NCBI GenBank assembly: GCA_963514005.1
Contig: OY740807.1
Span: forward strand, 1,488,001-1,552,000
DNA from: Raja brachyura
Lineage: Eukaryota
Reading direction: 5' to 3'
Length of the DNA: 64,000 nucleotides
Below are positions 5,273-58,901 of the stretch, one piece after another. How positions within the stretch are numbered: the stretch's first letter is position 1; the number at the start of each line of letters is the position of its first letter. Made by a program: the position numbers and the translations under genes. The notes beneath the pieces were generated by a model, which was given only the letters and a program-made list of their open reading frames with translations, had not been told where the DNA came from and did no database searches.

Positions 5273-6329
5273 TTGCAAAAGTGTGCTGGGACCAGGAAAG
5301 ATCTTCGGACTGGCGGCAGATCCGCGCGGAAGTCGAGTAGCCCCGCTGGAGCGGCACTCACCAACTTTCTACTGCAACAGTCCGATAAAATCCACCCCGA
5401 CAGGGTAAAGACTGGCCGTCATAGCCCCATTGACTCAGTTGAGTCTGGGGAAGATGACCTGCCATTCGCAGATAGCGACGGCGATCGCATTACCAGCATG
5501 GAGCGGATGATGGAGCAGCTGCTCCAGAGGGACCCACTCCAGCAGGAGCATGGGTCCCGTGGATCACACAGGTCCACAACAGCTCCTTATCCAGGATGGG
5601 CTGCAGGAAGAGGAACTTCTGGAGATGGTGTCCAAATTTGCACAGCCATCCCAGAAAGACCACTTCAGCCACGGTTAGCAACAAGCATAAACTATCTGAC
5701 TACGCACCAGCTACAAGAGCAGGTAATATCCGAGACCACAGCCCCGGAGAACTGCGTATCGCTGAATGTGCCTACCATCAATACTCCCATATGGGGGAAC
5801 ATAAGCCCGGGCATCAGGACACAAGAATTGAAAATTCAAAACATTCTAAAACTGCTAACTGCAGGAATCACTGCATTTGCAAGGTTCATTGATGGTACAG
5901 ACATGACGGAGGAGCAGCAGGAAGCGTTAGCTCTATTCTGCAACGCTCAATATGAAATCAATTGTTTCAGGAAGAGCTCAATCTGTCCCACATTCAACCC
6001 CAAATTTGCGGGGTTGTGCAAAGACAGCGCTACGCCGTCGCCGAGCTTGCTATTTGGGGATGACCTGCCTAAACAGGTCAAGGACCTCGATGACATTTGT
6101 ATAGCCATCTACCTCCGACATTATCTAGATGTCACCAAGAATATCAGGTGTACGGAAGTAGGTATTTTTTTATCAGTTTTAAACACCCTCACTACACCCG
6201 CACAGCATTGGTGTATTTGTCCCATACTTTAATTTAATCTGTTTAACTGAGCGATTATCTGCATGTTGAAAAGATAGCCTAATCTGAAAAATGGCAGTTT
6301 GAGGTCTGGCACCTCTAAGGGGGGTGGGG

Positions 6330-11627: not shown

Positions 11628-12111
11628 CCAGATAAATCAAAAATTGAAACCCTCCACTACCATGGATTATCTGGGGTTCACTATCGATTCTGTTCATATG
11701 TCTATCACCTTGCCACCAAACAAAGGGACAGACTTGACGGAAGCATGTAAAACCCTCACTGGCATCAGGAACCATCCATTCTGCAAGTAGCCAGAGTGAT
11801 TGAGAAACTAGTGGCTGCATTCCAGCAGCACAATTTGGACCACTCCATTAACAAAACCTGCAAGAGCAAAAATTCTAGCTCTTAAAAATCATGCGGGCCA
11901 TTTTGATAGGTCTATGAAACTACCAGAGAAGCTAAATTAGAATTTTACTTCGGAGTCACGTGAGTGACTACGTGAAGACCCCGCCAGCACGCATGCGCGA
12001 CATATCGTCGTACGCATGCGGAAGCGACGGTCGGGAGGAGCGGGGCTCCTCCAGCGTGAGTTTAAAAAGCTCACGCCAGGTAAGTCTCACCGAAGGGGTG
12101 AGTCGACCAGT

Positions 12112-13317
12112 ATGGAAGGGAGAAAGAGGAAGAGAGCGGCGGCCAAATCAGCGGCTAAGGACAGCAGCCAGCGGAGAACCGCTTCTCCAGAGCTTCAGGT
12201 TCCACCTGCAGCTCCCGACTTTTCGGACTTTGAGACCGTTGGTACGCCACGGTCGGGGAAAACTACCCGGAAGTCGGCTGGGGCGGACTCAGCGGAGTCC
12301 GGTCCCGAGGGCACCCCACTCGCTGGCAGCGACGGAGGTCGCCTTGACCGCATTGAGCGGCTGATGGAGCAGATGCTCCAACGTGACCTGTTACAGCAGG
12401 GGCAGGATCACAGTGGGACCCCTAGTAGGCCCACGGCAAGTTCCTTTCGAGGACTGCCCAATGTATCCCCTTCTATACAGGGGAGCATTGAGGGTCAGAA
12501 CTGGGCTGACCCAGAAGAGGGAGAGTTGGCTAAAGCACCTGCAGCGTCAGGGGTGTGTGAAGATTATATGGATGTGGTGAGCAAACATGCCATGCCCCAC
12601 CAGAAGGGCCTACCCATCCACCCCAAGCTGGCTGCCAGCATTGATTATATGGCCACCAACCAACTTCAGGAACAGGCCATCAATGCCACAGCAGATAAAT
12701 ATTTGGCGCCAGAAAACTGCAAATCGTTAAATGTGCCCGCGGTGAACAACCCGATATGGGGGAACATGAGCCCCTCAAGTAGAGGGCAGGAGATGAAACT
12801 TCAGAAGATTCTGAAGCTCCTTACCGCAGGGATTACTGCAGTAGCCAGAACAGCAGTGGGAGTGGATATGCCGCAAGAGCTGCAAGATGCTTTGGCCTTA
12901 CTGTGCAATACACAGTATGAAATTAACAATTTCAGGAAAAGCATTATAAAGCCGGCGCTTAACCCCAAGTTCGCGGGGTTATGCAAGCCTGGGAAGACGC
13001 AGCCTCCAAGCCTGTTATTCGGGGAAGATCTCCCCAAACAGGTAAAAGATCTTGACGAGGAGGCTAAGGCTTTGGGCCTTATTAAAGTACCTGGGTACAC
13101 TAAGCCTCATCACTCACACAGAACGCACCCCTACGCACCCACCGGGCAGAGTTACCCTAACAGGTCTGCCGGTGGTGAAAGCTCGAAGGCCGGCATACCT
13201 GCACAGCGGTCTTTTTTAGGCCAAGGCCCAGGCCGGCCTCCTTGGAAGATGCGCCACTCCCAGAACACCTACAACCAGCCGAGGAAGCAAGGGCAGAAAC
13301 CTCCACACCGGCAGTAA
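12112..13317 (+). CDS. DIRS ORF1, gag-like protein (frame is open from an upstream ATG at 12016)
   Basis: Open 433-codon frame with a basic low-complexity N-terminus and a conserved core shared with three other copies in the window. ATG 12112 corresponds to the ATG at 9756 in the outer copy. Confidence 0.85.
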   Translation: MEGRKRKRAAAKSAAKDSSQRRTASPELQVPPAAPDFSDFETVGTPRSGKTTRKSAGADSAESGPEGTPLAGSDGGRLDRIERLMEQMLQRDLLQQGQDHSGTPSRPTASSFRGLPNVSPSIQGSIEGQNWADPEEGELAKAPAASGVCEDYMDVVSKHAMPHQKGLPIHPKLAASIDYMATNQLQEQAINATADKYLAPENCKSLNVPAVNNPIWGNMSPSSRGQEMKLQKILKLLTAGITAVARTAVGVDMPQELQDALALLCNTQYEINNFRKSIIKPALNPKFAGLCKPGKTQPPSLLFGEDLPKQVKDLDEEAKALGLIKVPGYTKPHHSHRTHPYAPTGQSYPNRSAGGESSKAGIPAQRSFLGQGPGRPPWKMRHSQNTYNQPRKQGQKPPHRQ

Positions 13318-13319
13318 CC

Positions 13320-15254
13320 ATGGAGGTAGGTGGGTCTGGGATCCCCAAGAACACTACTGACCTAAATTCACTCTGCATAGGGGGCAGGTTGCACATGTTC
13401 CTCGAGAATTGGCTCACTTTTACCTCTGATCCTTATATACTCAGGAGTATTCAGGGCTACAAAATTGAATTTATTCACGAACTCCCTACCCCGGTACAGC
13501 ATGCGCCTAGTCGGAAATTCGTCCTTTCTCATAGAGATAAGGCAGCAGGGCATGCTGAACTGCAGAGGTTAATAGAAAAAGGGGTAATTGAAAAGGCCTT
13601 TAAAGAACCTCAGGAGTTCATGTCTAATATATTCACTAAAAACAAAAAAGATGGCGGGTGCCGCATCATCATAGATTTGACCGACCTGAATACTTCTGTC
13701 CAGTATATCCATTTTAAAATGGACACCTTCGACACTGCTACTCAGCTTGTAGCCAATAGGTACTACATGGCATGCGTTGACCTTAAAGATGCATACTATT
13801 CAGTACCCATACACAAGGATCATAGGAAATACTTAAAATTTATCTGGATGGGACAATTATGGCAATATAAAGCTTTGCCTAATGGGCTATCGTCAGCACC
13901 CAGATTGTTTACCAAGATATTGAAACCAGCTTTGGCCTATTTAAGGAAACAGAATCATACTGTTATGGCCTATCTTGATGACATCCTCATAGTGGGGGAG
14001 AATTTGGAAATGGCTACTTTGGCAGTCACAGCCACGAAACATATTTTTCAGATACTGGGGTTTACGATACATCCAGATAAATCAATATTGGAACCCTCTA
14101 CCACCATGAAATATTTGGGGTTCATTATTGACTCAGTGCAAATGTCTGTCACGTTACCACCAAGCAAGGTGGAAGACCTGATAGAGGCTTGCAGGAGCCT
14201 CTTTGGCATTAAGGTCCCATCCATTCGGCAGGTGGCCAGGGTGATTGGGAAGATAGTAGCTGCATTTCCTGCAGCACAATATGGGCCCTTACATTACCAA
14301 AATTTACAAAGAGCAAAAATTACGGCGCTCAAAAATCATGCTGGCCATTTTGATAGGCCCATGAAAATTCCAGAAAAGGCAAAAGCTGAACTATATTGGT
14401 GGATGGGTAATGCCCAAAATTGTTCCAAACCCATGACTATCGCCAATCCCTCGATCACCTTACAAACGGATGCCAGTGCCAAAGGGTGGGGAGCTACTAA
14501 CACTACCTCTAGCTGTGGAGGTAGATGGAGTGCACCAGAGTTAACCCTATTTAAAAACTTAGGGATTAACTATTCAGAAATGCTCGCAGCATTTCACGGA
14601 CTTAAAGCATACTGCACTAACATGCACAAAGTTCATGTTAGACTACAGATTGACAACACCACGGTGGTAGCCTATATTAACCACATGGGCGGTGTAAAGT
14701 CGATATCATGTGATGAATTGGCCAACAATATCTGGCACTGGTGTCTGCAAAGAGGAATTTGGATCTCTGCAACTTACCTACCAGGTAAACTAAACACAGT
14801 GGCAGACACCAGATCACGGAAATTCAACGACAACATAGAATGGATGTTGGATCGGAAAGTGTTTACAGATATTGTAGAACGTTATGGGACACCAGATATC
14901 GACCTTTTCGCGTCCAGGCTAAATCACCAACTACCAACGTATGTTGCTTGGGAGCCAGACCCGGCGGCGGTAGCGATGGATGCTTCCTCGCTACACTGGG
15001 GGGATTTGTTTTTCTACGCTTTCCCCCCTTTCTGCCTTATCAGTCGGGTCTTGCAAAAAATCAAGCAAGACTCCGCATCGGGTATCTTGGTAGTGCCCGA
15101 CTGGCCTACTCAACCATGGTTCCCTCTGGTACAAAAGATGGCCACAGAACCCTGTGTCAGGGTGAATAAAAGACCAAGCCTGCTTGTTCATCCTGTTACA
15201 GGAGAAAGTCATCCATGTCATGATCGTATGGATTTGTTAATCTGCAGACTTTAA
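13320..15254 (+). CDS. DIRS ORF2: reverse transcriptase - RNase H - Dam-like methyltransferase domain
   Basis: RT motifs RIIIDL, DLKDAYYSVPI, LPNGLSSAP, YLDD. RNase H motifs TDAS, INYSE, QIDN, NTVAD. MT-like C-terminus DIDLFAS...YAFPPF...VVPDWPTQPW. Kozak-like ACCATGG at 13320, two bases after the ORF1 stop. Confidence 0.93.
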   Translation: MEVGGSGIPKNTTDLNSLCIGGRLHMFLENWLTFTSDPYILRSIQGYKIEFIHELPTPVQHAPSRKFVLSHRDKAAGHAELQRLIEKGVIEKAFKEPQEFMSNIFTKNKKDGGCRIIIDLTDLNTSVQYIHFKMDTFDTATQLVANRYYMACVDLKDAYYSVPIHKDHRKYLKFIWMGQLWQYKALPNGLSSAPRLFTKILKPALAYLRKQNHTVMAYLDDILIVGENLEMATLAVTATKHIFQILGFTIHPDKSILEPSTTMKYLGFIIDSVQMSVTLPPSKVEDLIEACRSLFGIKVPSIRQVARVIGKIVAAFPAAQYGPLHYQNLQRAKITALKNHAGHFDRPMKIPEKAKAELYWWMGNAQNCSKPMTIANPSITLQTDASAKGWGATNTTSSCGGRWSAPELTLFKNLGINYSEMLAAFHGLKAYCTNMHKVHVRLQIDNTTVVAYINHMGGVKSISCDELANNIWHWCLQRGIWISATYLPGKLNTVADTRSRKFNDNIEWMLDRKVFTDIVERYGTPDIDLFASRLNHQLPTYVAWEPDPAAVAMDASSLHWGDLFFYAFPPFCLISRVLQKIKQDSASGILVVPDWPTQPWFPLVQKMATEPCVRVNKRPSLLVHPVTGESHPCHDRMDLLICRL

Positions 15255-16225
15255 AACGGCCACTTCATGGACTCGGACTCTCCAACAGGACCATTGATAC
15301 TATCACGGGAGCCTGCAGAGAGTCCACAAGGAAGCAGTACTTGACCTACATCAGGAAGTGGGAAAGATTCTGCGTGACTACTAAAACTACATACGAAACC
15401 GCCACCATCACGGAAGTGCTGGAGTTTCTGGCTACCCTTCATTACGATGAGGGTTTAAGCTACAGCGCCATTAACTGCGCCAGGAGTGCCCTATCGTCTT
15501 ACTTGGGCAAGGGGAGTGACCAATTGGGAATTGGGTCACATCCCCTGGTATCCAAATTTATGCGGGGAATATTTAATTCTAATCCCCCCAGGCCCAGATA
15601 TAGCCATACCTGGGACATCAGCACGGTATTGACGATGCTGCGAGGATGGACACCGAACACGGGACTCCCTTTGGCCAAATTAACCTACAAAATGGTCATA
15701 ATAATGGCACTGATCACGGCGCAACGGGTCCAGTCCCTGCACAAACTCAGTCTGGATGCCATGGCAATTACCAGTGGGAAAATCACATTCCAGGTGCAGG
15801 GACTATTGAAGCAAGATCGACCCGGAGTGTCTGGACATACTTTGGAGTTCATGGGTTACCCAGCGGACACTCGTCTTTGTATCGTTACATTGATTCTGCG
15901 ATACATTTCAGTCACTAAAGATCTAAGGGGCACGGAAACAGCTTTGCTTGTCAGTCACAAGAAGCCTCATCACAGGGTCACGGTGCAAACCATTTCCAGA
16001 TGGTTAAGGGTGGTACTGGATGCGGCGGGGGTGGATACTAATGTGTATAAATCTCACTCCACCAGGGCAGCATCCACCTCGGCGGCTAGAAGGATGGAGG
16101 TACCACTGGATCACATCCTGGCCACAGCGGGTTGGAACAATGAGAGAACCTTCCACCGCTTTTATAACAAACCCGTGACCTCCCCTGACAATTATGCAGG
16201 GAGGATCTTAAGTGCTGCCAGTTAA
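15248..16225 (+). CDS. DIRS ORF3: tyrosine recombinase (start uncertain; frame open from 15224, no ATG before ~15560)
   Basis: Catalytic residues R (TAQR), K, HSTR, GW and Y (HRFY) are present. The N-terminal core-binding region is STRKQYLTYIRKWERFC...GLSYSAINCARSALS. Confidence 0.9.
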   Translation, partial: TLKRPLHGLGLSNRTIDTITGACRESTRKQYLTYIRKWERFCVTTKTTYETATITEVLEFLATLHYDEGLSYSAINCARSALSSYLGKGSDQLGIGSHPLVSKFMRGIFNSNPPRPRYSHTWDISTVLTMLRGWTPNTGLPLAKLTYKMVIIMALITAQRVQSLHKLSLDAMAITSGKITFQVQGLLKQDRPGVSGHTLEFMGYPADTRLCIVTLILRYISVTKDLRGTETALLVSHKKPHHRVTVQTISRWLRVVLDAAGVDTNVYKSHSTRAASTSAARRMEVPLDHILATAGWNNERTFHRFYNKPVTSPDNYAGRILSAAS

Positions 16226-18843: not shown

Positions 18844-20301
18844 TATTGATGCAGATTCTGAACAGGCCATTTCTGGACTACGGACTCTCCGACAGGACGA
18901 TCTATGTCAACACAGCGTCGTGCATGGAGTCCACCAGAGACAGCACTGACATATGTCAGAAGATGGGAGTGTTCTGCTTTAGAACAAACACTTCATATGA
19001 CTCGGCCACCATCACTGAGTGCTGGAGTTCTGGCCACCCTTCATTCCATGAAGGTTTGAGCTACAGTGCCATTAATTTTGCAAGGAGTGCCCTATCTAAT
19101 AACCTGGGCCGAGGGAGTGATCACCTGCCTATAGGATATCACCCACTGGTATCTAAACTGATGAGGGGTATTAATTCCCCCAGGGCCAGATACACCCATA
19201 CATGGGACTTAGGCATAGAATTTACTATGCTTCGAGGATGGACACCAATATTGGGGCTCACTCTGGATAAACTAACATATAATATGGTTATGTTATGGCA
19301 CTTGTAACAGCACAACGGGTCCAGTCTTTATAAAGCTAAGTATGGATGCCATGTATTAACCAATGGTAGATAACCTTTCTGATACAGGGGTTACTCAAAC
19401 TATATCGACCCCGTTCCTCTGGCCAAAAATTATCATTCTGGCCTACCCTGCAGATAGTCGGCTCTGCATTGTGACATATATTTTACGATATAGAAGGAAC
19501 CAAGAATCTAGGGGCACGGAGAGGACTTTACCCATAAGCCACAAACGCCCTCATCATAAGGTCACAGTGCAAGCCACTTCCAGTTGGTTAAGGGTGGTAT
19601 TGGGTGCAGCGAAGATGGACACTAATGTTTTAAATCTCACTCCACCAGGGCTGCATCCACATCGGCGGCTAGGATGATGGGAGTTCCTATGGACCACATC
19701 CTTGCTACAACGGGTTGAAGCAGTGAACGGACTTTTCAGCACTTCTATTATAAACCTGTGGCCGCTCCTGAGACGTTTGCAGGGGGAAAATGTTAAGTTC
19801 TGTTACATGATTTACCCAATGTGGGGCATATCACTTTAGGTATGATTAAATACCTTCTTTGTTTTTCAGCACAGTATCATGTCTGAAATACGTTCATCCT
19901 CCATCCCTAGCATGGCAGTGTGTGAGCATGGACTCGTTCCAGGGCATGAAATCACAGAGCTTTGAAATCTTCACGTAGTCACTCACGTGACTCCGAAGTA
20001 AAATAGTAAGATTAAATGAGAACTTACCAGTTTGAAGTTTGATCTATATTTTATGAGGAGTTACGATGAGGGATTACGTGCCCTCCGCTCCCAAACCCTC
20101 TATTATAAAGTTCAACTGGTATATAAAGTTCTCTCTTATCTTACTATGTTAGTCTACTCTGGTATCTGTGATTTCACACCACTGCTTTGAAGAATGTCGC
20201 GCATGCGTGCTGGCGGGGTCTTCACGTAATCCCTCATCGTAACTCCTCATAAAATATAGATCAAACTTCAAACTGGTAAATTCTCATTTAATCTTACTAT
20301 T

Positions 20302-20565
20302 ATACTGCATCTGCCACGCATCTGCCCACTCACTCAACCTGTCCAGGTCACCCTGCAGCCTCCTAACATCCTCTGCACAGTTCATACTGCCACCCAGCGT
20401 TGTATCATCCGTAAACTTGCTAGTGTTGCTCCTAATTTACTTATCCAAATCATTAATTTATATGGTAAACTGTTCCAGCCCCAACACCAAGCCTTGTGGC
20501 ACCCAACTCGCCACTGCCTGCCATTCTGAAAAGGACCAGTTCACTCCTACTCTTTGCTTCCTGTC
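20302..20565 (-). mobile_element. CR1 LINE RT fragment (target of the outer DIRS right end)
   Basis: Homologous to 29465-29730. Confidence 0.85.
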
Positions 20566-21327: not shown

Positions 21328-22933
21328 CAGTGGTTTGCAAAAGTATTCATACCCCTTGAACGTTTCCACATTTTGTCATGTTACAACCACAAATGTAAAT
21401 GTATTTTATTGGGATTTTATGTGATAGACCAACACAAAATGGTGCATAATTGTGAAGTGGAAGGAAAATGATACATGGTTTCCAAATTTTATTACAAATT
21501 AAAAACTGAAAAGTGTGGTGTGCAAAAGTATTCAGCCCCCCTGAGTCAATACTTTGTATCCTTTCGCTGCAATTACAGCTGCAAGTCTTTTGGGGTATGT
21601 CTCTACCAGCTTTGCACTAGAGACTGACATTTTTGCCCATTCTTCTTTGCAAAATAGCTCATCTCAGTCCGATTGGATGGAGAGCGTCTGTGAACAGCAA
21701 TTTTCGAGTCTTGCCAGAGATACTCAATTGAATTTAGGTCTGGACTTTGACTGGGCCATTCTAACACATAAATATGCTTTGATCTAAACCATTCCATTGT
21801 AGCTCTGGCTGTATGTTTAGGGTTGTTGTCCTGCTGGAAGGTGAACCTCCGCCCCAGTCTCAAGTCTTTTGCAGACTCTAACAGGTTTTCTTCCAAGATT
21901 GCCCTGTATTTGGCTCCATCCATCTTCCCATCAACTCCGACCAACTTCACTGTCCCTGCTGAAGAAAAGCATCCCCACAGCATGATGCTGCCACCACCAT
22001 GTTTCACAGTGGGGATGGTGTGTTCAGGGTGATGTGCAGTGTTAGTTTTCCGCCACACATAGCGTTTTGCATTTAGGCCAAAGACTTCAATTTTGGTCTC
22101 ATCAGACCAGAGCACCTTCCTCCACGTGTTTGCTGTGTCCCCCACATGGCTTGTGGCAAACTGCAAACGGGACTTCTTATGGCTTTGTTTCAACAATGGC
22201 TTTCTTCTTGTCACTCTTCCATAAAGGCCCGATTTGTGGAGTGCACGACTAATAGTTGGCCTGTGGGCAGATTCTCCAACCTGAGCTGTGGGTCTCTGCA
22301 GCTCCTCCAGAGTTACCATGGACCTCTTGGCTGCTTCTCTGAACAATGCTCTCCTTGCCGGACCTGTCAGTTTAGGTGGACGGCCATGTCTTGGTAGGTT
22401 TGCAGTTGTGCCATACTCTTTCCATTTATTGATGATGGATTGAACAGTGCTCCGTGAGATGTTCAAAGCTTGGGATATTTTTTTATAACCTAACCCCACT
22501 TTAAACATCTCCACAACTTTATCCATGACCTGTCTGGTGTGTTCCTTGGGGTTCACGATGCTGTTTGTTCACTAATGTTCTCTAACAAACCTCTGAGGCC
22601 TTCACAGAACAGCTGTATTTATACTGAGATTAGATTACACACAAGTGGACTCTATTTACTAATTAGGTGACTTCTGAAGGCAATTGGTTGCACTGGATTT
22701 TATTTAGGGTATCAGAGTAAAGGGTGCTGAATACTTTTGCATGCCACACTTTTCAGTTTTTTATTTGTAAAAAAATTGAAATCCATGTATCGTTTTCCAT
22801 CCACTTCACAATTATGCGCCACTTTGTGTTGGTCTATCACATAAAATCCCAAAAAAATACATTTACATTTGTGGTTGTAACGTAACAAAATGTGGAAAAG
22901 TTCAAAGGGTATGAAAACTTTTGCAAGCCACTG
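21328..22933 (-). mobile_element. Tc1-like DD34E transposon with ~210-bp IR/DR-type TIRs
   Basis: CAGTG...CACTG termini and TA TSD at 21326-27 and 22934-35. Confidence 0.95.
21603..22556 (-). pseudogene. Tc1 transposase; start codon reads GTG and the C-terminus is frameshifted
   Basis: Motifs GRPPKL, WSDETK, QQDNNPKH, SPDLNSIE. There are 34 residues between the second D and E. Confidence 0.88.
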
Positions 22934-25900
22934 TATTTATTGAGAGTTAAGGAGAATTCATTTGGGATGATCTGGGAAAAATGGACCGTTTATTTAAGCC
23001 ATGACACCAACTAGATAAATGCCGAGCTAGATATGGGAAGATTGTGTTATATAGAACTAGATGGTATGCTTGTGCGAATATTGAAATATCTCCAGTAAAC
23101 TAATCAATTTAACTTTTATTTTATTTGGTAAGTGTATCACATGGCCTTATTCCATTTTTTTATTCATTTACTTTGTGTTGTGTGGGTTTTCCCTATTTAT
23201 TTATTTATTTATTTATTTATTTTGATTGTTGCTCTTCTTATTTTATTTTATTGATGGTGATGATGTTGCACTGTTTTGTATATATCTCTGTGAAAAATCA
23301 ATAAAAACTTAAGTGAAATAAAAAGTGTGCCCTCCGGTCAGCGTTCACAGTATAGTGTCGATCTTACAGACACCTCCTCTCGTAACAGCTGTTCCCAGCC
23401 CCCCCCCCCCCCCCCCCCACCGCCTGGTAGCAAAAAGGGTCTGCTGCTCGATGTCCTAATTACAACTAATTTCATGTTCTGTATTACTTACGGTAAAACC
23501 TGTAATTGCTGCATGAAATCAGACCACTTTGCAAGATGTTGCCATTCCTGTGCAACTCAATCCACCCCAAGAACGATCTTGCACCTGTTACAACATGAGC
23601 TTGCTGATAACGAAAACCAAGAGCCTGACTTGCCATCCCCTGCTCAGCTCTCTGAAAATACAGATAACAGTTCAGCCATCCACTCTCTCTTCCCTTCCTC
23701 CAATGAGCAACTTGACCCTGAGGTAACCATGTTTGTGAATAACAGACCTGTGATCACCATGGTTGATATTGGCACCAAATGCAATCTCATCTCCTTATCA
23801 GAATTTAAAAAAATTATTAATGCTGAACCTATTGAAAAGGCCTCGGCCTTGCTTTGGGTCTATGGGGGAGATGTTCTACACCCGCTTGGCTAAACTAATT
23901 TAAAATGCACACACAGCCCCATACCCTAAAGTTTTATATCATCAAGGGGGATTCAGAGACTTTGCTCGGTATCAATGCATGCCACGATCTAGGCCTGGTA
24001 TACCTTGGCCGCGCTGTCCATCAACTCATTCTCGCTGAGGGGCCCACTCAGCAAGTACTCTCTCAATACGAAGAACTGTTTAACAACGAGCTTGGCAAGT
24101 TGCCCCTCGAGTACCACATTGTCTTTGATCCCAACATCACTCCTGTGGTCCGAGCACCACGTAGTGTTCCACATGCCATGCGTGACAGAGTTCACAATGA
24201 ACTCAAGCGGATGGTCTCCAGGAGTGTTACTGCTGAAGTTACTGGCCCATCCAACTGGGTTTCCACCATGGTGGTCACAATGAAAGAAACAAGGAGAAGA
24301 TCCATATCTGCATAAACCCCAGAGATCTCAACTCTGCTATCAAACACCCGCAATACCCTATGCGGACAGTAGAGCTGTTTTGCTGCTCAAATAGGCAATG
24401 CTTCAGCGTTCACCATTCTAGATGCCAAAAGCTCATTTTGAAAGATTCCACAGGACCCAGACTTGTCCAATCTTATTACGTTAGGCACCCCCTTCAGCCG
24501 CTACAAATTCCTGAGAATGCACTTTTGCATCAACTCTGCCAACGAAGTTTTCCAGCGCACAATGGAACAATTGTTTGCTGAGTATCCATGTCCCATCATT
24601 GTTGATGACATTCTCATCCACGGACGTGACCTGGCTGAACATGATGCTAATCTGAAGACCATGCTAAAGACATTCAGCTCAAACTCAATCCCCTGAAGTG
24701 CAAGTTTTGAGTCCCGGAAGTTACCTACGTCGGACATGTTTTCACAAGTGATGGTCTCAGACCAGCTCATTAAAGACTGCAGTTATCAATGAGATGCCGG
24801 TCCCTACTGATGTTGCGAGTCTACAAAGGTTCCTTGGATTAGTCAACTACCTGGGGAAATTTATTCTCAAACTCAGCGACACATCTGCCCCCTGCGGGAA
24901 CAGACACATAAAGATGCTGCATGGTCCTGGTATCCGCAGCACCAAAGAGCTTTCGACTCTCTCAAGTTGCAGCTGCCTCGCCCACCTACTCTCACCTACT
25001 TTGCTTTGTAGTCACCAGTAATGCTCACCTGCGATGTGTCCCAGTACGGAGTTGGCGCTGCTTGCCAGCAGGGCACTACCCATGGCGACTGCAAGCCTGT
25101 TTCTTACGCCTCTCGCACACTGACACTGAACAACGTTACTCCCAGATTGAAAAAGAATTGATCACAGTGGTTTTCGCCTGCACAATATTCAAGGACCTTA
25201 TTTTTGGGAAGTCTGTGTCTATAGAAACTGACCACCAGCCGCTGGTCACTATTTTGAATAAACTCATTCGCACTACCCCAGCCCGATTACAACGGATGAA
25301 GATGCAGCTGCAGCAGCTTGCTTTCAACATTGTCCATAAGAAAGGCAAGGACATGTACATAGCTGACATGTTATCAAGGGCCCCATGCAAAACCAACGAA
25401 CAACAACTCTCTGAACACGACCAGTTCGCTGTAATGAAGGTATCGTATGTTCCTACTGATTGCTTAATTAGCCTGGCAGAGCACACAGCTGCTGGCGAGA
25501 CTTTACAGTTGCTGTCCGCAGTCTGGCCGGATAAACAACACAACACCCCGCTTGCAATCTGCCCATACTTCCTGGTTCGTGACGAACTGGTGTTACAGGA
25601 CGGGATTATAGTTAAGGGCCACAAACCAGTCATCCCAGCTGTCCTCCAGGACAATTACTTCCATGCCATCCACAGCCCCCCCCCCCCCCGGCATGGAGGC
25701 AACCCTACAACAGGCACAAAGCATGTTTTACTGGACTGGAATGACCAAGTACATATGCGACAAAACTGAAGACTGCGCCGTCTGCAAAAGACTGACGCCA
25801 CATTAGCAGATGCAGCCCTTACTGCTGCAGCCGGTTCCTTCTCTCCCGTGGTCCACGTTAGCCACCGATCTATTCGAATGGCATGGGAAAACCTATCTGG

Positions 25901-36716: not shown

Positions 36717-36722
36717 TTTATT
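36717..36722 (-). promoter_or_regulatory. Candidate polyadenylation signal of the Ig light-chain gene
   Basis: AATAAA on the minus strand, ~270 nt after the C-exon stop. Confidence 0.65.
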
Positions 36723-36988: not shown

Positions 36989-37317
36989 TCAGTTCGCGCA
37001 GGTGGACGACGAGACGGTGTGTCGCAGAGGCGAGCTGAGCGAGCTATGTCCGACGCTGCAGGAATAGCTGGAGCCCTTGTCCCATGGGGCGGCGGGGACC
37101 CGCAGGTAACTGCTCAGCCTGTACGTCTGTTCGGCGTCCGGGGACACGGCGCCCGACGTCACCCCGCTCTCCGTCTCCACGCCGTCCACGGCCCAGCGCA
37201 GCGCCACGAAGCCCGGCTTAAAGCCGCTCACCAGGCAGCTGAGTGTGGCCGAGCCCGTGCCAGTTTCATCCGGAGACGGAGGGAGCAGGAGAAGTGAGGG
37301 CTTCCGAGACTCGCTAC
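36989..37317 (-). CDS. Immunoglobulin light-chain constant exon (sigma-cart / type I class)
   Basis: C1-set domain: PSLLLLPPS, ATLSCLVSGFKP, W, YRLSSYL, YSCSVGH, with a terminal Cys (STCAN*). Polypyrimidine tract and CAG acceptor at 37318-37320. Phase 1 matches the J donor. Confidence 0.95.
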
Positions 37318-37429
37318 CTGTGTGTGGAGAGGCGGAGGAGAAGAGAAACATTATTAGTTGATGGAGACCGTCGGCAGCGCCACACACAGCGAGAGAAACG
37401 AATTCGGCCACGGAAAGTGTCAGTGACTG

Positions 37430-37742
37430 GGCGCGGTGGTGCAGCGCTGGAGCAACTGTCTCACAGCGCCAGAGAGCCGGGTCGGATCCTAAATATAGGT
37501 GCATGTCCGTACGGAGTTTGTACATTTATCACCGTGACGTGTGTACGTTGTCAACGAGAACTTCGGTTTCCTCCCGCATTCCTTAACGTACAGTTGTGTA
37601 GGTTAATTGACTTGGTATCAATGTAAAATTGTCCCCAGTGTTTGTAGGGTAGTGTTCGTTTGCGGGGATCTTTGGTCGGTGTGGACTCGGTGGCCGAAGG
37701 ACCTGTTTTCGGGCTGTCTCTCAAACTAGAACTAAAACTAAA
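37430..37742 (+). mobile_element. tRNA-derived V-SINE (HE1-like) in the J-C intron
   Basis: A-box-like TGGTGCAGCG, CTCACAGCGCCAGAGA..CCGGGT..GATCC, V-domain-like core, CR1-like tail and (AACTAA)n end. Confidence 0.7.
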
Positions 37743-38029
37743 AGACCGTCGATGACGCGAACAATTCATGAAAGTCGAGGAAAAGGACGCGGCTATTGAA
37801 CCCAGCAGGTCTAAGCCGGCTAATGAAGATTGGCCCAGGTTAATCGCAGCTGTCGCCTTGCAGCCAACACCAGGCCGAGAGCTCTAAAGCCACTTGAGTA
37901 ACATCACCCCGGCCCCGTCCCTCCACCTGGCGCCGCTCGGCTTTACGTCGCTCTGTCGAGACGACTTCATTGCGGGGTTCAATAATTCCCCAGCTCTGGA
38001 ATTCGCTTGAATGTGAATTTGCGAATGTA

Positions 38030-38300
38030 GCTATTTTAGGAGATACAGCATGGAAACTGGCCCTTCGGCCCACCGAGTCTACACTGACCATTATCACCCG
38101 TTCACACTAGTTCTATGAGATCCCGCTTCTCACCCACTCCCCGTACACTCGGGGCAACCGGAGCACCGGGAGGAATCCCATGGGGGGTCACAGAGAGAAC
38201 TTGCAAACCCCACACAGACAGCACCCGAGGTCAGGCTCGAACCGGGGAATCTGGCGCAGTGAGGCAACATATCTACCATTGAGCCAATGTGCCACACCCA
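38030..38300 (-). mobile_element. tRNA-derived V-SINE (HE1-like), antisense copy
   Basis: Reverse complement reads CTCACTGCGCCAGATTCCCCGGTTCGAGCCTGACCTCGGGTGCTGTCTGTGTGGGGTTTGCA. Confidence 0.7.
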
Positions 38301-38830
38301 CTTTAAGGAGTTATGGCGGGAAATACCGGTACCGGAGAGGCCTCCGGATATCCAACACTCCCTGTCAAGTGACGCAAGGGGAGCGGCGGGACGCAGCGCG
38401 GTTCCGCAAACCATTGAGAGGTGAAGAGACGAGGAAGCGACCGGTTCATCCCGGATTACACCCCGAGCCCGCACCAACACGTCCTTTCCCGCTACACTCT
38501 CTAACTGACTTGCCCAACCCGCTGCACAGTATTTCCCTCAATGTCATTCATCAGAATGCCTGCAAATTGTCTTCCTTGTTTCCCCAACATTAACGCGTTT
38601 GATTGTGGCAAACTGCGACTTGTGTTAACGATGCAGGAATCCCCGCGGGCTAGCGTTCCCCGCAGGCGGGAATACTATCCCGACCGCTGACGTACGGCGC
38701 GGACCCGATGGGCAGAATGGCCTCCCGCGCCGAGTAGAGACAGAGCAAGTTCTTCCAGAGCGTTCCCGGACTGGGGAATGAGAACGACTGCAAAGGGGAT
38801 TCATGGGAACAGAACGAGGGAGTCACTTAC

Positions 38831-39183
38831 TATTTATATCCAGGATACTCCCAGGGCTGAAGATGTATCCCACGTCGTTTTCCCACACGACACAGTAGTA
38901 GACGGCGGCGTCTCTGGGCTCCAGGGTGACGATGGTCAGGATGTAGCTGTTGGCGGAGGTATCTCTGGACGGTTGGAACCGGTCTGTGATCCCACTGCCA
39001 CGCAATATATCATTATCCGTTTCATACTTTATCACCCACTCTGGTCTCTCCCCGGGACGCTGTCGATACCAATGTACATGGTAACTTGCAACATTTCCGT
39101 TCTGCATCCGACACACTTAATTTGTGCCGCGGAGACAGGTCCGGGCGTTGAAGTGTGATTCAGGACTGGGATCGCCAGGAGAC
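38831..39183 (-). pseudogene. Germline-joined V-J exon of an Ig light chain, with an FR1 frameshift
   Basis: Acceptor TTGAAG| at 39184-85. Reads GLLA-IPVLNHTSTPGPVSAAQ, then in another frame CRMQNGNVASYHVHWYRQRPG...DRF...DAAVYYC-VVWENDVGYI-FSPGSILDIN. Donor |GTAAGT at 38830. No RSS between V and J. Confidence 0.92.
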
Positions 39184-39558
39184 CTTCAACAAAACACAAT
39201 GAAAACCTTAATCAAAGCCTCAGAAATAAAGGACATTCCTTTATAATGAGATGATGAAGAGTTTCTTTAGTCCAGGGGAGGTTAATTAATTACGGCGGTT
39301 TAGGCCAAGCTATGACAGAGATAGATAGATCCGTGTTTCGTACGGGTGACAGGGGTTATGGGGAGAAGGCAGGAGAATGGGGTTAGGAGAAAGAGATAGA
39401 TCAGATAGAGATTGAATGGCCCATCACTTATGGACAGATGAAACGACTGGGTGATCTGGAGCCCACAGAAGGCTAGACACGCGTAGAGCACCGACGATGG
39501 TGGAGATTTTAACGAGCCTCGTTGCAGCTAATCAGTCGTGAACCAACCCGAGTCTCAC

Positions 39559-39607
39559 CTGCTGGGAACAGCAGCAGAGGCCACAGGAGGTGCAGCGCTG
39601 GGGCCAT
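39559..39607 (-). CDS. Ig light-chain leader (signal peptide) exon MAPALHLLWPLLLFPA(G)
   Basis: 49-nt exon with ATG at 39607, a hydrophobic peptide and a phase-1 donor CAG|GTGAGA. It is in frame with the V acceptor. Not shown in the ORF track. Confidence 0.9.
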
Positions 39608-46523: not shown

Positions 46524-47520
46524 ATGAAAAAAGCGAAAACTCGCCAGAAGCCTGCGAAAGCTGCTGCCAGACCTGCTACAAGAGCTTATCTGAAAAAATG
46601 TGGAAAGACTCCTCAATCCCCTCAAACATCAGCTGGAAGCTCAGAAGAAGAAGCTGACTTTCAAAATCCTTCTACAGAACTGACTTCAATGGAGGAACAA
46701 AGGGAACAAATTGAACAACTGGGAAAGTCAGTAACAGCTTCAGTCACTGAAAACATCTGTAAAGTGATACCAGAGGGGAATGTCGTGCTGGACAAAAGCC
46801 TGTCTGAAAAAATCAAACAAGGTAATGATAAGCTGATGGGGAAAATTGACGACCTAACCAAACGTGTGGTCAAGATTGAGGAGGATTTAAACAATAAAAT
46901 TAAGCGGGTTGATAAGAACTGTAATAAAAAGATGTTAAAGTCCACTGAAGCGGCTATGGAAGGAATGGATAATACGTTAACTGAGATGGAGATAAAGAGA
47001 CTAAAAACGGAACAAGAAAGTACTGGGGGTGAGCTTGCTAAAATGAACTATAAATGTATGGACTTGGAAGCAAGATCGAGGAGGCAGAACCTGAGGATAA
47101 TTGGAGTAAAAGAAGGAAAGGAGAGTGGACAAAACTTTCAGGAGTTTGCTGGCAACTTACTCAAACAAGTACTTAAGCTGCCTGAAGCCCCAAGAATAGA
47201 TATGCTTCACCGGGTCCGACATAAGGCTCAAGCAAGCTCAAATGCCCCCCCAAGACAGATTATTCTGAAATTCTGTGATATTTCAACCCTGGAAGGAATT
47301 ATGAAAAAGATTCCATATGGAGTGAATTTGATGTTTGGAGAAGACAAACTAAGATTCTTCCGTGATTTTCCAGCTGAAGTCATGGAAAAGAGGGACAAGT
47401 TTACAAACACGAGAAGGGAGTAAGATATGGGATAGTATATCCCGCGAAATTGAGAATTACTTATAACTCTGTCGTACATGCATTCACGGATCCAGAAGAG
47501 GCATTTAAATATGCATAAAG
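46524..47520 (+). pseudogene. L1 ORF1 (coiled coil, RRM, CTD), frameshifted near 47420
   Basis: Motifs DLEARSRRQNLRIIGVKEG, PRQIILKF, LRFFRDF. Confidence 0.88.
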
Positions 47521-50500
47521 TATCACACAGGAGGCTTACTGATAATTAGGAGTTGGTCTCCCCCAATAACACAGAAGAAAGGATTGTGTTTCCCTTTTTT
47601 TTTAACATACAAAAAAGATTACTCTGGTTAAGATGGAGAATTTTCATCGAGACGTTGTCTAGACATCTTATCTTTGGAATGTTAATTCAAGGTCGGATTC
47701 TATCTTTCATTTCAACAAAGGATTGGCAAAGAAAAAAAACTGTGGCGGGGAAAATAACTTGAGAATATGGAAAAATATTATCAGTGGACTTGTATATAGA
47801 AACTTATGATTTAAGAAACACACAATTATATACTATCATAAAATATAATTAATAAAATTGTGTAATATTAAGGCATAGCGTAACAATGGCTGTTGTTTAT
47901 TTCATTATGTTAATTACTTGCTAAATATAACAATAACGAGTTAAATATGATTGATAAGTATTAACATACTAACACATTTTATGGATATAGTAGATTTAGT
48001 TTAAATTGCACGTAAAGGGGAGGGGAGGAGACTCAGATACTTGGAAGTTATCCGGGCTTGTGTGTCGGACAACAGCAGGTTCCAAGGTTAACCACTTGGA
48101 GCCTGCTGTTGTCTGATACAAAAGTTTCAGACTTAATTGTAATAGATCTTGGCATATCGATAGATATGGATATATAATTAACATAATCACTGTTATATCT
48201 AAGTATATACTTAATGTTGGAAATTCTCTTTTATTTTGTTTTTCCTCTTTGAATCTATCTATCGGAGTGCGTTTTATTTTATATATATATATTTTAACTT
48301 TGTATTGTTCTCTCTTCCAATTAATAATAATTGGTCAAGGGAGCAGAGCGAAACATATAAAAACATCTACGGAAGTCGATAAGAATTTTTCTACCCCCGT
48401 TGGTGGTTTGTTTTAAATTATAATATCTTTATTTTTGGATATTATAATATCACTTTTTGTTTGTTAATTATCTTTTCACGACTCTACATTTTCTGGTCTT
48501 TTTCAAGGTCTATTCTGAAGGGGAGATGCCAACAAAATTTAATAGCTGGGGATGATCATCCCTCACCTAGAGTAATGAGGGTCTTGGTTGCACCATATGA
48601 AGTAAAGGTATTAACATGATCCATAATGCAAGACGATAAACAAAAGAAAACTGGAGGAATCACGTTCTGCAGTTGGAATATAAGGGGCGCTAATTAACCA
48701 ATTAAAAAGGGGAAGATCTTTGCCCAATTAAAAGCTTTAAATAGTGATGTCATTTTTTTACAAGAGACGGATCTGAAATATCAAATACAGATAAGACTGA
48801 AGGCAAATTGGATAGGGCAAACATACTCATTTACTTCAAAATCTAGAGGCACGGCTATTATCATTCGTAAAGGTATACCATTTAAATTAAAGAATACCAT
48901 AGCAGATAAAGAGGGGAGGTACATCATAGTCATGGGAGAAATTTATTCTACTCCACTTACTTTGATAAATATTTATGCTCCTAATTTTGACAACCCTCCA
49001 TTTTTTAGTAAAATTCTGGATAAAATTTCAGAACTTAACTATCAAAATATGATAATAGGGGGAGATTTGAATTGTGTTTTAGATCCATATCTGGATAAAT
49101 CTGCAAAACAAAAAAGGATTAACATAAAATCTAAAACTAGTGAACTCCTAAATACATACATGAAAAATACCAATATGACAGATGTATGGAGGATCGCTAA
49201 CCCAGTAGGTAGAGAATATTCATTTTATTCAACGGTACATAAAACATGTTCATGTATTGATTATTTCTTAGTGGACACAAAATTAATTCCATACACATAT
49301 AATGCTAAATATACAATAGTATTATTTCTGATCATTCCCTGTTAACTTTTTCTTTAAAATTAGAAGGAATAACAAAACGTTTTGGAGGTTTAACCCCCAA
49401 ATCTTAAACAACTAACAAGGTTGTACATATTTAAAAGAGCAGATGAAATTCTTCTTTGAGACAAATGATACACCAGATATTTCACCCTCCTTATTATGGG
49501 AAACTTTTAAGGCATTTACAAGAGGAACTATAATCTCATATCAAGCTTTCCAAAATAAAAATAATAATACTGAACAATTACAGTTAGAACAAGAAATTAG
49601 ACGATTAGTTTTACAAAATGCTAAAGAACCAACTATAGATAAACACAATAAGATAACAATACTAAAATATAAATTAAATAAAATTTTATCGGCCAGAATA
49701 ATAAGATTATTTCAAATTACAGAACAAGAAAATGTTGAATTTGGTGATAAACCACATAAACTCTTAGCACGCCAACTGAAAGAAAGAGAAACAGAAAATA
49801 CAATTACTAAAATTAAATCAGACAAAGGGGAATTAATAATACTACCTAAAGATATAAATAAAAGATTTGCTCAATATTATCAAAATGTATATACATCGAA
49901 AACCTCTGCAAATAATACTCAAATTACAAATGTCTTAGACAATTGTAATCTTCCAAAATTAAATATGGTGGAACAAGAGGGATTAGGAGCTCAGATTACA
50001 CTTCAGGAAATAGAAGAAAAAATAAATTTGTTGAAGAATGGCAAAACGCTAGGACCAGACAGCCTTAGAAATGAATTCTATAAAAGATTCCACATGATAA
50101 TTTCTCCACGCTTGCAAGATTTATATATACACGCTTTTAAAGAAAATTAACTACCAGAAACACTAACTGAGTCAACTATTACACTTATACCAAAAAAGGA
50201 TAAAGATCTAGAAGACCCAGGCTCATATAGAGCTATTACACTCCTAAATACAGATAAAAAAATATTAGCAAAGACACTAGCGAGAAGATTGAGTAAATAT
50301 GTTAGCAAACTAATAAACCCGGATCAAACTGGGTTTATACCAAAGAGATACTCATTTAACAATTTGAGATGGCTGTCTAATATAATGTACTCACATAATA
50401 CTGAAGAAGACCTAGCAATTATCTCACTGGATGCAGAAAAAGCTTTTGATCAAGTAGAATGGCAATATTTATTCAAAGTATTGCAAAAATTTAACATGGG

Positions 50501-52259
50501 AGATAACTTTATCTCATGGGTAAAATTATTATATGATAAGCCGACGGCTAGAATACTGACTAATAATATATTATCCCTGAAATTCCAATTGGCAAGGGGC
50601 AATAGGCAGGGGTGCGCATTATCGCCACTGCTATTTGCACTAGTGATAGAGCCTTTAGCAGAAAGTATAAGAAGTCATCCGAATATTCATGGATACAATA
50701 CCAAACACTTAAATAATAAAATTTCATTATATGCAGACGACATATTATTATATATTACAAATTCTCAAATTAGCATACCAAATATACTAAATTTAATAGA
50801 GGAATTTGGTTCTTTTTCAGGATATAGAATGAACTAGAAAAAAAGCAAAATTATGACGATAAAACCTCAAGAGCCGCTACATCTGTTGAAATTCCCCTTT
50901 AGAATTGCAACAGAAAAATTTAAGTATTTGGGCATCCAAATTACTAGGAAATATAAATCATTACTCAACGCAAACTATATACCTTTAATAACGAAATTAA
51001 ATGGGTTGATTAAATTTTGGAAAACATTGCCGATGTCCTTAATAGGCAGAATAAACGCGATAAAAATTATCTTCTTACCACAAATATTGTACCTATTTCA
51101 ATCAATACAAATATACTTTCCTAAAAAATTCTTTAAAAAGGTTAGATTCTGATGTTATAAACTTCATATGGGATTATAAATCACATAGAATTAAGAAGAA
51201 ACACTTGTTTAAATCTAAAGAATCAGGGGGACTGACACTCCCTAACTTATTGTATTACTATTGGGCAGTGAATATTAAAAATATAATCTATTGGTTGAAC
51301 AGTTCTGCCCAACAGGTAGGTTGGGTAAGAATGGAGAAAGAGGATTGTTCCCCTTACAATATAGGAGCGATCCTTCTTTCCCCGATGAAACTGAACAATA
51401 TAATGTATAACAAGAATCAAATTATGCACTATAATACGAATTTGGAATCAAATAAAATTAACTTTAAAATTAAGAAAATTATCGCTTCTTTCTCCAATAA
51501 CTAATAATCCCTCATTCAAACCATTCATTATTGATAAAACATTTATCCAATGGGAAAGATTAGGAATTAAAACAATGGGAGATATGTATGAAATGGGAAA
51601 ACTTTTATCATTCCAACAATTACAACTAAAATATAATTTGAAAAGTAATCAATATTTCAAATATCTTCAAATTCAAGATTATTTGAAGAAACATATACAA
51701 GCATATCACACCCTAACCCCAGATTTGTTGGAGGAAGGCATGAGTAGAAAGGCAGGATCAAGCAATTTAATATCTTACTTATATAATATAATTTTAAATA
51801 TAGGAACACCAATGACAGAGGCAATTAGAAGGGACTGGGAACAAGAGTTATGGATAAAAATTCCTAATGATAGATGGGATTTTTTTTTATTATATGTAAA
51901 TAAATGTTCAATTAATGTAAGACATAACCCAATTCAATTTAAAATTTTACATAATTATATTATTCAAAAACTAGACTGAATAAAATATTCCCAAATGTTT
52001 CCCCCATCTGTGACAAATGTCTAACTCAAATGCCACTATAGCACATTCCTTTGTCTCTTGTAGAAAACTGTATACATTTTGGAATGAAATTTTTGGAATT
52101 TTTACAAAACTATTTAACACAAAATTGAACCCCAATACAGAATTGATTATCTTTGGATCAATGGAAGAGGGAAGTAAACTAACTATATTCCAAGGGTTAC
52201 ACAAAAAGCTGGAGAAACTCAGCGGGTGCAGCAGCATCTAAGGAGCGAAGGAGATAGGC

Positions 52260-52521: not shown

Positions 52522-53691
52522 TTAACAGAATTGAGAAAATTCAATGTTTAAGCCCAGAGGATGCAGACTCCCCAAGCGGAATATGACTTGCTGTTCCTCC
52601 AACTTGCGGTGTTGCTCACTCTGGCCGTGGAGGAGGCCCAGGACCGAGAGGTCGGATACGGAATGGGAGGGGGAGTTGAAGTGCTGAGCCACCGGGAGGT
52701 CGGGTTGGTTATTGCGGACCGAGCGGAGGTGTTCGGCGAAACGATCGCCCAGCCTCCGCTTGGTCTCACCGATGTAGATCAGCTGGCATCTGGAGCAACG
52801 GATGCAGTAGATGAGGTTGGAGGAGGTGCAGGTGAACCTCTGTCGGACTTGGAATGACTGCTTGGGTCCCTGAAAGGAGTGGATGGGGGAGGTGAAGGGA
52901 GAAGTGTAGCATCTCTTGCAGTTGCAAGGGAAAGTGCCCGGGGAAGGAGTGGAGCGGGAGGGAAGGGAAGAATTGACAAGGGAGTTGCGGAGGGAGCGGT
53001 CTTTGCGGAAGGCAGACAGGGGGGGAGATGGGAAGATGTGGCGAGTGGAGGCGTCACGTTGGAGGTGGCGAAACTGGCGGAGGACTATCTGTTGTATGCG
53101 CTGGCTGGTGGGGTGAAAGGTGAGGACCAGGGGGAGTCGGCCCTTGTTGTGAGTGGAGGAATGGGGAGAGAGGGCAGTGTTGCAGGGTATGGAGGAGACC
53201 CTGGTGCGAGCCTCATTTATAGTGGGGGAGGGGAAACCCCGTTCTCTGAAGAACGAGGACATTTGTGATGACCTGGTGTGGAACACGTCATCCTGGGAGC
53301 AGATGCGGCGTAGACGGAGGAATTGGGAATAGGGGATGGAGTCCTTACAGGAAGCAGGGTGGGAGGAAGAGTAGTCCAGGTAGCTGTGGGAGTCAGTTGG
53401 TTTGTAGTGGATGTCAGTCAGGAGTGTATCACCTGCAATAGAGATGGTGAGGTCAAGGAATGGTAGGGAAATGTCGGAAATGGTCCAAGTATATTTGAGT
53501 GCCGGATGGAAGTTGGTGGTGAAATGGATGAAGTCAGTCAGTTGTGCGTGGGTGCAGGAGGTGACACCAAAGCGGTCGTCAATGTAACGGAGGTAAAGGT
53601 TGGGGGTGGGGCCCTGGTACGCCGAGAACAAAAATTGTTCGACGTGCCCGACAAAGAGGCAGGCGTAGCTGGGGCCCATGTGTGTGCCCAT
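52522..53691 (-). pseudogene. Penelope RT C-half plus GIY-YIG endonuclease (upstream part frameshifted to ~54305)
   Basis: Motifs AMGT, LRYIDD, FLDL, IYCIRCSRCQLIYIGETKRRLGDRFAEH. Confidence 0.9.
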
Positions 53692-54979
53692 AGCTACGCC
53701 TTGTGTTTGGAGGAAATGGGAGGAGTCAAAAGAGAAGTTGACTCTTAAGGGTAAGGACCAACTCCGCTAGGCGGAGGAGGGTGTCAGTGGATGGGTATGG
53801 GTTGCTCCTCTGGTCGAGGAAGTACCGGAGGGCTTTGAGACCATCCTGGTGGGGGATGCAGGTGTATAGTGACTGGACGTCCATGGTGTGTAGATGAGAG
53901 GATGGGGGCCTGGACAACGGAATGTGCGGAGCCGACGGGAGAGTGTCTGAGGTGTCTTGAACATAGGTGGGGAGGGATTTAACAAAGGGCGATAGGATGG
54001 AGTCAAGGTATGTGGAAATGTGTTCGGTGGGGGCACGAACAGGCGGAGACAATGGGTCTGCCGGGGCAGTCGGGTTTGTGGATTTTGGGGAGAAGGTAAA
54101 ATCGGGCTGTGCGGGGCTGGGAAATGATGAGGTTGGAGGCTCGGGGGGGGTAGGGAGCTGGAGTTGATGAAGTCAGTTATGGTGCTCGAGATGGTGGCCT
54201 GGTGCTCATCAGTGGGGTCATGGTCCAGGGGTAAGTAGGAGAAGGTGTCCGAGAGTTGGCGTGTGGCCTCTGCTTTGTAGAGATCGACGCGCCAGACTAC
54301 CACAGCACCTCCCTTGTCATCTCCCTTTCATTCATTGTTCTTTATCTCTCCACATCACTGTTTATATCTCTCGTTTCCCTGATCCCTGACCAGTCTGAAG
54401 AAGGGTCTCGACCCAAAACGTCACCTATCTCCTTCACCCCTTAGATGCTGCTGCACCCGCTGAGTTTCTCCAGCTTTTTGTGTAACCCTCGATTCTCCAG
54501 CATCTGCAGTTCCTTCTTTAACTATATTCCAAGAAGCTTTTCTTAATTACGGTCTAATAACAGCAAAAAAACTTATACTCAAATTTTGGAAAAACGCAGT
54601 CAAGCCAACATTCAAAATGTGGATGTCAAACATGTCTGAAACGCTTCACCTACTAGACAAAGTAGATCAATTCTCAAAGACTTGGTCTCCTTTTATCAAC
54701 TTTTTACAAGCATATGGTGCAACATAACATAACCTTAGAAATTAAATGGTTTAGAACCGGGTGACGGATGGGCAAAAATACGAAATAGATGGATCTCTCC
54801 TAATCTCTCTTTTCTTTACTTTCTCCTTCTATTTCAATCTTTTCAGCTTCTCTTCTATGTCCTTTATTTCTTTTGCTATCTGTCTCTACTCGCTTGTCTA
54901 TCTATTCCCACACTCTGTATTTCTTTTTTCTCTCACTGTTCTCTTATTATTAAATCAAAAGTTGTACAAGAATGGAAAT

Positions 54980-57450: not shown

Positions 57451-58901
57451 AGCGCACAACACAAACCACTACCGCAGCAACTGTGATATTCTCTGATTTT
57501 GGTTGCACAACGGGCTTGGGTTTTCTACTTTTGTGGTTACCTTGAATAACTGATTACTAATTGATTGTATTATTGATTACTGTATATTTTCTCCGCGTTA
57601 ATACGTCAATGGGTCTATCAAGGTATCAAAAGTGAGAATATCAATGTTCCTTTCCCTGTGCATTTGACCATTAATCACTATTAGGGTACGGGGTTCCTCG
57701 TGCGTCGGCTCGCCCTTGTTCAACGTGAAGGTGGCTGATCATTTACCCGAGTGCTACCCTCCCGCACGAAACCCAGAGCATCAATTCCCTTCACGTCCAA
57801 CAATACAGTGGCTTGCAAAAGTTTTCATACCCCTTTACTTTTCCACATTTTGTCACGTTACATCCACAAACGTAAATGTATTTTATTGGGATTTTATGTG
57901 ATAGACCAACACAAAGTGGCGCATAATTGTGAAGTGGAAGGAAAATTAAAAATGGTTTTCAAATTTTTGTACAAATAAAAAACTGAAATGTGTGGCATGC
58001 AAAAGTATTCAGCCCCCATTGCACTGATACCCCTAAATAAAATCCAGCGCAACCAATTGCCTTCAGAAGTCACTAGTAAATAGAGTCCACTTGTGTGTAA
58101 TCTAATCTCAGTATAAATGCAGCTGTTCTGTGAAGGCCTCAGAGGGTTGTTAGAGAACATTAGTGAACAAACAGCATCACGAAGCCCAAGGAACACACCA
58201 GACAGGTCAGGGATAAAGTTGTGGAGAAGTTTAAAGCAGGGCGAGGTTTGAAAAAAAATCCCAAGCTTTGAACATCTCACGGAGCACTGTTCAATCCATC
58301 ATCCGAAAATGGAAAGAGCATGCACAACTGCAAACCTACCAAGACATGGCCGTCCTCCTAAACTGACAGGCCGGGCAAGGAGAGCATTGATCAGAGAAGC
58401 AGCCAAGTGGCCCATGGTAACTCTGGAGGAGCTACAAAGATCCACAGCTCAGGTGGGAGAATATGTCCACAGGACAACTATTAGTCGTGCACTCCACAAA
58501 TCGGGCCTTTATGGAAGAGTGGAAAGAAGAAAGCCATTGTTGAAACAAAGCCATAAGAAGTCCCGTTTGCAGTTTGCCACAGGCCATGTGGAGGACACTG
58601 CAAACATGTGGAGGATGGTGCTCTGGTCTGATGAGACCAAAATTGAAGTTTTTGGCCTAAATGCAAAACGCCATGTGTGACAGAAAACGAGCACTGCACA
58701 TCACCCTGAACACACCATCCCCACTGTAAAACATGGTGGAGTCAGCATAATGCTGTGGGGATGCTTTTCTTCAGCAGGGACAGGGAAGCTGGTCAGAGTT
58801 GATGGGAAGATGGATGGAGCCAAATACATATGGGTGATGTGCAGTGTTCGTTTTCTGCCACACACAGCGTTTTGCATTTAGGCCAAAAACTTAAATTTTC
58901 G

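Follow-up and report, generated by a model that had tools for sequence, protein, structure and literature searches.

A light-chain gene whose V segment runs directly into J in genomic DNA raises the question whether the join is inherited or was caught from a B cell and, if inherited, how it arose and what has become of the gene that carries it. The gene studied here lies in a 64-kb stretch of DNA, the whole of which was analysed and is called the window. It is very probably a pre-joined sigma-2 (type I) light-chain cluster of a skate, one of nine tandem copies with a single V-J junction, which a frameshift in the assembly makes a likely pseudogene.

Structure of the light-chain gene in the window

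Read directly from the sequence, the gene consists of a leader, an intron, a fused V-J exon, a second intron and a C exon, all on the minus strand. The leader exon (39559..39607; MAPALHLLWPLLLFPA followed by G) comprises 49 nt with a phase-1 GT donor, and its position and length are identical in all eight other copies on the same contig, C29. It is followed by a leader intron of 375 nt (39184..39558, GT..AG), which contains a fragment of a high-copy repeat and has lost 7 nt in comparison with the paralogues. In one intact copy (L053), the same intron has a private 106-nt insertion, probably a short repeat element. The fused V-J exon of 353 nt (38831..39183) was delimited by sequence reading, Pfam and comparison with paralogues, and contains no recombination signal sequence (RSS). 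A J-C intron of 1,513 nt (37318..38830, GT..AG) separates it from the C exon, a C1-set exon of 329 nt (36989..37317) that is open according to Pfam and paralogue comparison and whose protein is 98-99% identical to those of the eight other C29 copies. An AATAAA at 36717..36722 on the minus strand is, from its sequence only, the likely polyadenylation signal. No exact octamer was found within 1.5 kb upstream of the ATG.

At the junction, the protein reads YYC-VVWENDVGYI-FSPG. The fixed CDR3 VVWENDVGYI, 10 codons long, occupies 38862..38891 on the minus strand, between Cys at 38894-38892 and Phe at 38861-38859. V and J are thus contiguous and mutually in frame without an RSS, while both introns are kept, as expected of a germline-joined gene. 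A processed (retroposed) immunoglobulin cDNA was rejected on the same grounds, as both introns are present and all four splice ends are GT..AG. On the uninterrupted V-J run, both intron lengths and the exclusion of a processed cDNA, the preliminary description of this DNA was correct.

The window holds a single V, a single J and a single C, as in a minicluster, and the nearest other cluster is ~79 kb away. As the preliminary description had also stated, there are no other segments in the 64 kb: a tblastn search with five sigma-2 proteins detected no further V or C exon, and a J-motif scan yielded a single additional J-like motif, at 23838, which is a chance match. An exact heptamer-12-nonamer does not occur anywhere in the window. 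When up to 3 mismatches and spacers of 11-13 and 22-24 were allowed on both strands, three weak matches appeared (23346, 25163 and 58863), all of them more than 11 kb from the gene. A spacing of ~2.4 kb between some CACAGTG matches was also considered and rejected as being at chance level, with 11 found against 9.6 expected and no matching tandem array.

The V-J join is very probably inherited and is shared by a sigma-2 array

Protein and DNA searches of the genome located nine pairs of V-J and C on contig C29. They extend from 1.52 to 2.41 Mb as a 0.9-Mb array, at distances of 79-178 kb from one to the next and with both orientations represented; two further, more diverged sigma-2 clusters lie on C47. 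All 11 of these clusters, a lower bound because only top candidates were scored in the searches, are joined, each with a CDR3 of 10 codons. The comparison of CDR3 among paralogous clusters that had been proposed at the outset places the nine C29 copies at no more than 4 differences over the 30 junction nucleotides; they share a single V-J junction. A search of the genome for a sigma-2 V end followed by a heptamer returned no match to this exact pattern, which is not proof of absence.

The same junction was encountered outside this assembly. Contigs from six of eight public runs, which represent six coded organisms and six studies with tissue unrecorded, cross it with at least 31 letters on each side; both runs of organism A (X1 and X11) have fewer than 31 letters on one side and were not counted. 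Among the loose contig ends of the second of the two sets of runs, none showed a heptamer at the junction. The V-J join is almost certainly inherited and older than the window locus. Because nine copies carry one junction, and this junction is common to several species, a B-cell artefact is a very unlikely explanation of the join.

These results support the original proposal of a germline join, both in the 11 joined clusters and in the contigs of six organisms. The further statement that the CDR3 is a heritable record of a V-J joining event holds for the old join but not as an event at the window locus: since the junction is common to the nine C29 copies and a near-identical peptide occurs in little skate, an old join has been multiplied by duplication.

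Three near-identical pairs were observed among the C29 copies (L048/L049, L051/L052 and L054/L055, with 22, 7 and 2 differences in ~3.8-4.0 kb); in two of the pairs the members point in opposite directions. Such pairs may stem from recent duplication, from conversion or from haplotypes left uncollapsed. The two clusters on C47 (L056 and L057; C47:2236675-2239369 and 2413982-2416442) form a second joined sigma-2 subfamily with the CDR3 AVRETDAVYY and an unusual CDR2. Both are open, and the Amblyraja protein P0042 groups with them at 100/99. A second array, at 11.87-12.93 Mb of contig C30, belongs to another light-chain isotype and comprises ~25 matches to V and C; its V matches extend through J, and it probably represents joined lambda (type II) clusters.

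Relationship to known light chains

Pfam assigned a V-set and a C1-set domain to the window gene, and a search of the structure database gave generic antibody matches only. Its V-J stretch is identical to Leucoraja type I at 77 of 94 positions (82%) and its C exon at 90%, in line with the type I, cluster-type assignment made earlier; for the V-J of an intact paralogue, the best named match was "type I immunoglobulin light chain [Leucoraja erinacea]" with 86% identity. By its V and C sequence, the gene is accordingly classed as a sigma-2 (type I/NS5) light chain; the names type I, NS5, sigma-cart and sigma-2 are used for the same isotype in reviews (PMC4279169). A V-region tree of 53 rows, from which the frameshifted window copy and the near-identical twins L049, L052 and L055 were omitted, set three C30 light-chain rows apart, at 100/100, from all 50 sigma-2-like rows, which come from sharks, skates and rays. 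Within the sigma-2 clade the base of the tree does not resolve and 19 of 50 inner branches are open, so the join cannot be dated from it.

Germline-joined sigma-2 genes of skates are a system known since 1995, when at least 89 clusters, all of them joined, were described in little skate (Raja/Leucoraja erinacea), with replacement changes concentrated in the CDRs (PMC2192082). The little skate type I genes, which correspond to sigma-2 or sigma-cart (PMC2192082; P0002), resemble the present ones in having one L, V-J and C per cluster and all copies joined, and likewise in an excess of replacement over silent changes in the CDRs (PMC2192082). Their CDR3, AVWENDVGII, is also 10 residues long and agrees with VVWENDVGYI in 8 of 10. 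They differ in number, at least 89 clusters compared with the lower bound of 11 here, and from the window copy in its frameshift (PMC2192082). No recent skate-genome description of sigma-2 loci was found in a literature search, which does not show that none exists. The contribution of the present assembly is modest: it provides what looks like a full map of a small sigma-2 array (9 + 2 clusters), in which the birth and death of copies, the focus of their divergence on the CDRs and the uniformity of their C exons are directly visible.

According to PMC5192425, all sigma-2 genes of skates are joined, those of horn shark are split, and nurse shark has both kinds. Nurse shark NS5 and horn shark type I belong to the same isotype as the genes described here: in the tree, shark type I proteins group with these V regions to the exclusion of the C30 outgroup (100/100), and their identity to the window V-J is 56-65%. 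Yet the horn shark type I genes are reported as split, and nurse shark NS5 as comprising a joined gene and a pseudogene besides two split genes, whereas all copies are joined here (PMC5192425; PMC2193156).

Among the sigma-2 protein models P0002-P0044, CDR3 comprises 10 residues in those of skates, 11 in Narcine and 8 in the majority of stingray, manta and sawfish models, which also include a separate 10-residue RVWESGV group. If the genes behind these batoid protein models are joined, there are several germline joins of independent origin among batoids. In a number of horn shark protein models, ...SAGYI is followed by HS, perhaps a heptamer read through, and these models suggest that the skate CDR3 is almost wholly V-derived.

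A frameshift in the assembled window copy

The preliminary description overlooked a lesion in framework 1. The V-J exon of the window copy is 7 nt short, 353 nt compared with 360 nt in all ten paralogues. Alignment with the paralogues revealed four substitutions and a complex net 7-nt deletion (39113..39156, minus strand); the deletion lies near 39119, just before the first cysteine, and the substitutions fall within the 40 nt that precede it. The deletion shifts the frame, and in the spliced frame a premature TGA (39032..39034, minus strand) ends translation after 66 codons, with 201 nt left to the J-C splice. A frame open from the leader through C is retained by 10 of the 11 sigma-2 copies, the window copy being the exception. 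Its transcript would, from the position of the stop, be a target of nonsense decay, and on the sequence evidence the frameshift likely makes this copy a pseudogene. No RNA run was listed as containing the sequence, which speaks neither for nor against transcription.

A cryptic AG beside the deletion would give an open frame of 220 aa. A truncated product is therefore formally possible, but a working chain is not expected, because splicing at this AG would cost the chain the last part of its signal peptide and the first part of its V domain, and the pyrimidine tract of this AG is weaker (11 versus 14 of 20). Gene conversion from the C47 subfamily was examined as a source of the framework-1 changes and rejected, as the sequences do not match. 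The changed bases form a 7-bp inverted repeat with a small folding gain (-9.0 versus -7.8 kcal/mol), on which nothing is built here.

Alternatively, the copy could be an intact germline-joined sigma-2 gene and the frameshift an assembly error, and the public runs give this explanation some support. The framework-1 site is intact in seven of the eight runs and uncovered in one, so the deletion is present in none of the seven informative runs. Moreover, a contig of organism B has the private 7-nt intron deletion of the window copy although its framework 1 is intact, and the window copy's letters beside CDR3 recur in other contigs of that run. However, none of the eight runs looks like the assembled individual (the best share of words is 0.54). 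They probably derive from other species or individuals, in which an intact orthologue does no more than date the lesion, and since the organism B contig combines the intron deletion with an intact framework 1, the lesion would postdate the copy. The lesion itself, a complex indel with four nearby substitutions, is no homopolymer slip. Nor does it stand alone: in the alignment, 8 further indels are private to the window copy, two or three of them at its ragged edge, and none of the nine copies on C29 has diverged more, with 71 private substitutions in the window copy compared with 16-36 in the other five lineages, counts that are partly inflated by alignment near indels. An assembly error is accordingly considered unlikely.

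Origin of the join

In the reading favoured here, an ancestral split V and J would have undergone a single join, which took place in a germ cell of some early skate or batoid. The join would have been of RAG type, nurse shark NS4 serving as the analogy (PMC2193156), and we infer the RAG origin of the skate join from the NS4 literature, in which germ-cell RAG action is itself established by inference (PMC2193156). The joined cluster would then have been duplicated into the array, whose intact copies may be expressed without rearrangement and differ mainly in CDRs under diversifying selection, with a C exon held near uniform across copies. The window copy would have lost its frame later.

The NS4 genes (kappa) are described in PMC2193156 as germline V-J joins with introns kept, as here, and 2 of 6 joined genes are pseudogenes. 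They are a different isotype, with several recent independent joins beside near-identical split genes (PMC2193156). These split neighbours allowed the RAG mechanism to be reconstructed, whereas here one old join has been amplified and a split partner was not found.

Alternatively, the fused exon could be a primordial V-J gene that was never split. No RSS remnant was found in the window and no split sigma-2 gene in the genome. On the other hand, the type I orthologues of horn shark are split and those of nurse shark include both forms (PMC2193156; PMC5192425), and the CDR3 lengths of the batoid protein models differ, as separate joins would make them. PMC2193156 itself calls the direction of change for type I "probable, but not conclusive". 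A gene that was never split is, for these reasons, a very unlikely origin, and a germline join is preferred.

Germline-joined antibody genes serve as evidence that germ cells can be a site of V(D)J recombination, a point already made in 1995 and 2000 with the sigma-2 family and nurse shark NS4. The window copy adds no new test of germ-cell joining, because its junction is old, shared with its neighbours and has no split partner.

Diversification of the copies

In the V-J exon of the five intact lineages, 34 replacement and 1 silent nucleotide differences were counted (P = 0.0005 against a 3:1 expectation), and 24 of the 34 lie within the 33 CDR codons of 119. Differences were scored against the commonest codon with our own CDR boundaries, and the counts are without phylogenetic correction; the replacement excess in CDRs agrees with PMC2192082. 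In the C exon, variable sites are scarcer than in non-coding DNA (5 of 329 versus 113 of 2,329 sites, P = 0.004). Diversifying selection on the binding loops may thus replace the junctional diversity lost by joining, and the uniformity of C may be kept by purifying selection or gene conversion.

The V-J exon is far richer in adjacent differences than the non-coding DNA of the clusters (18 of 55 versus 2 of 149, counts that are not independent), and shark hypermutation includes tandem changes (PMC5931798). A germline, AID-type tandem hypermutation might therefore diversify sigma-2 genes, with the framework-1 lesion as a germline-fixed scar. Most adjacent V-J differences, however, are found in a small set of CDR codons where several residues alternate, a pattern for which stepwise selected changes account equally well. 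No AID hot-spot or hypermutation-domain signature was detected, either in the V-J variable sites of six lineages, where WRC/GYW hot-spot sites are variable at 3 of 29 and other C/G sites at 11 of 114 (P = 1.0), or in the private events of the window copy. The latter number 14 in the 750 nt upstream, 16 in the 1,228-nt hypermutation target (leader intron to 500 nt past J) and 13 in the next 1,013 nt. Hypermutation of the window copy was rejected on this even spread, upstream DNA included, and on the absence of WRC/GYW bias, and a germline AID process is considered very unlikely. A somatically rearranged, hypermutated B-cell allele caught in the assembly would fit the clustered substitutions and the small V-exon deletion, which resemble shark hypermutation with its tandem changes (PMC5931798), but eleven joined clusters, nine of them with the same junction and without any split form found, the same junction in other organisms and private changes that are not concentrated in the hypermutation domain largely refute this explanation, to which we assign next to no probability.

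Transposon remains in the window

Outside the light-chain gene, the window consists mostly of transposon remains. A DIRS-type retroelement at 11968-16225 on the plus strand has three long overlapping open frames (a gag-like frame of 449 aa, a reverse transcriptase of 691 aa and a tyrosine recombinase of 333 aa) and looks young; an older partial relative of it lies at ~5273-6232 and 18861-20304. A Tc1/mariner transposase was identified at 21603-22568 on the minus strand, with a second copy near 57780-58828. The plus strand also carries an interrupted L1-like element (46524-50837), and the minus strand a GIY-YIG-bearing element of probable Penelope type (52522-53766).
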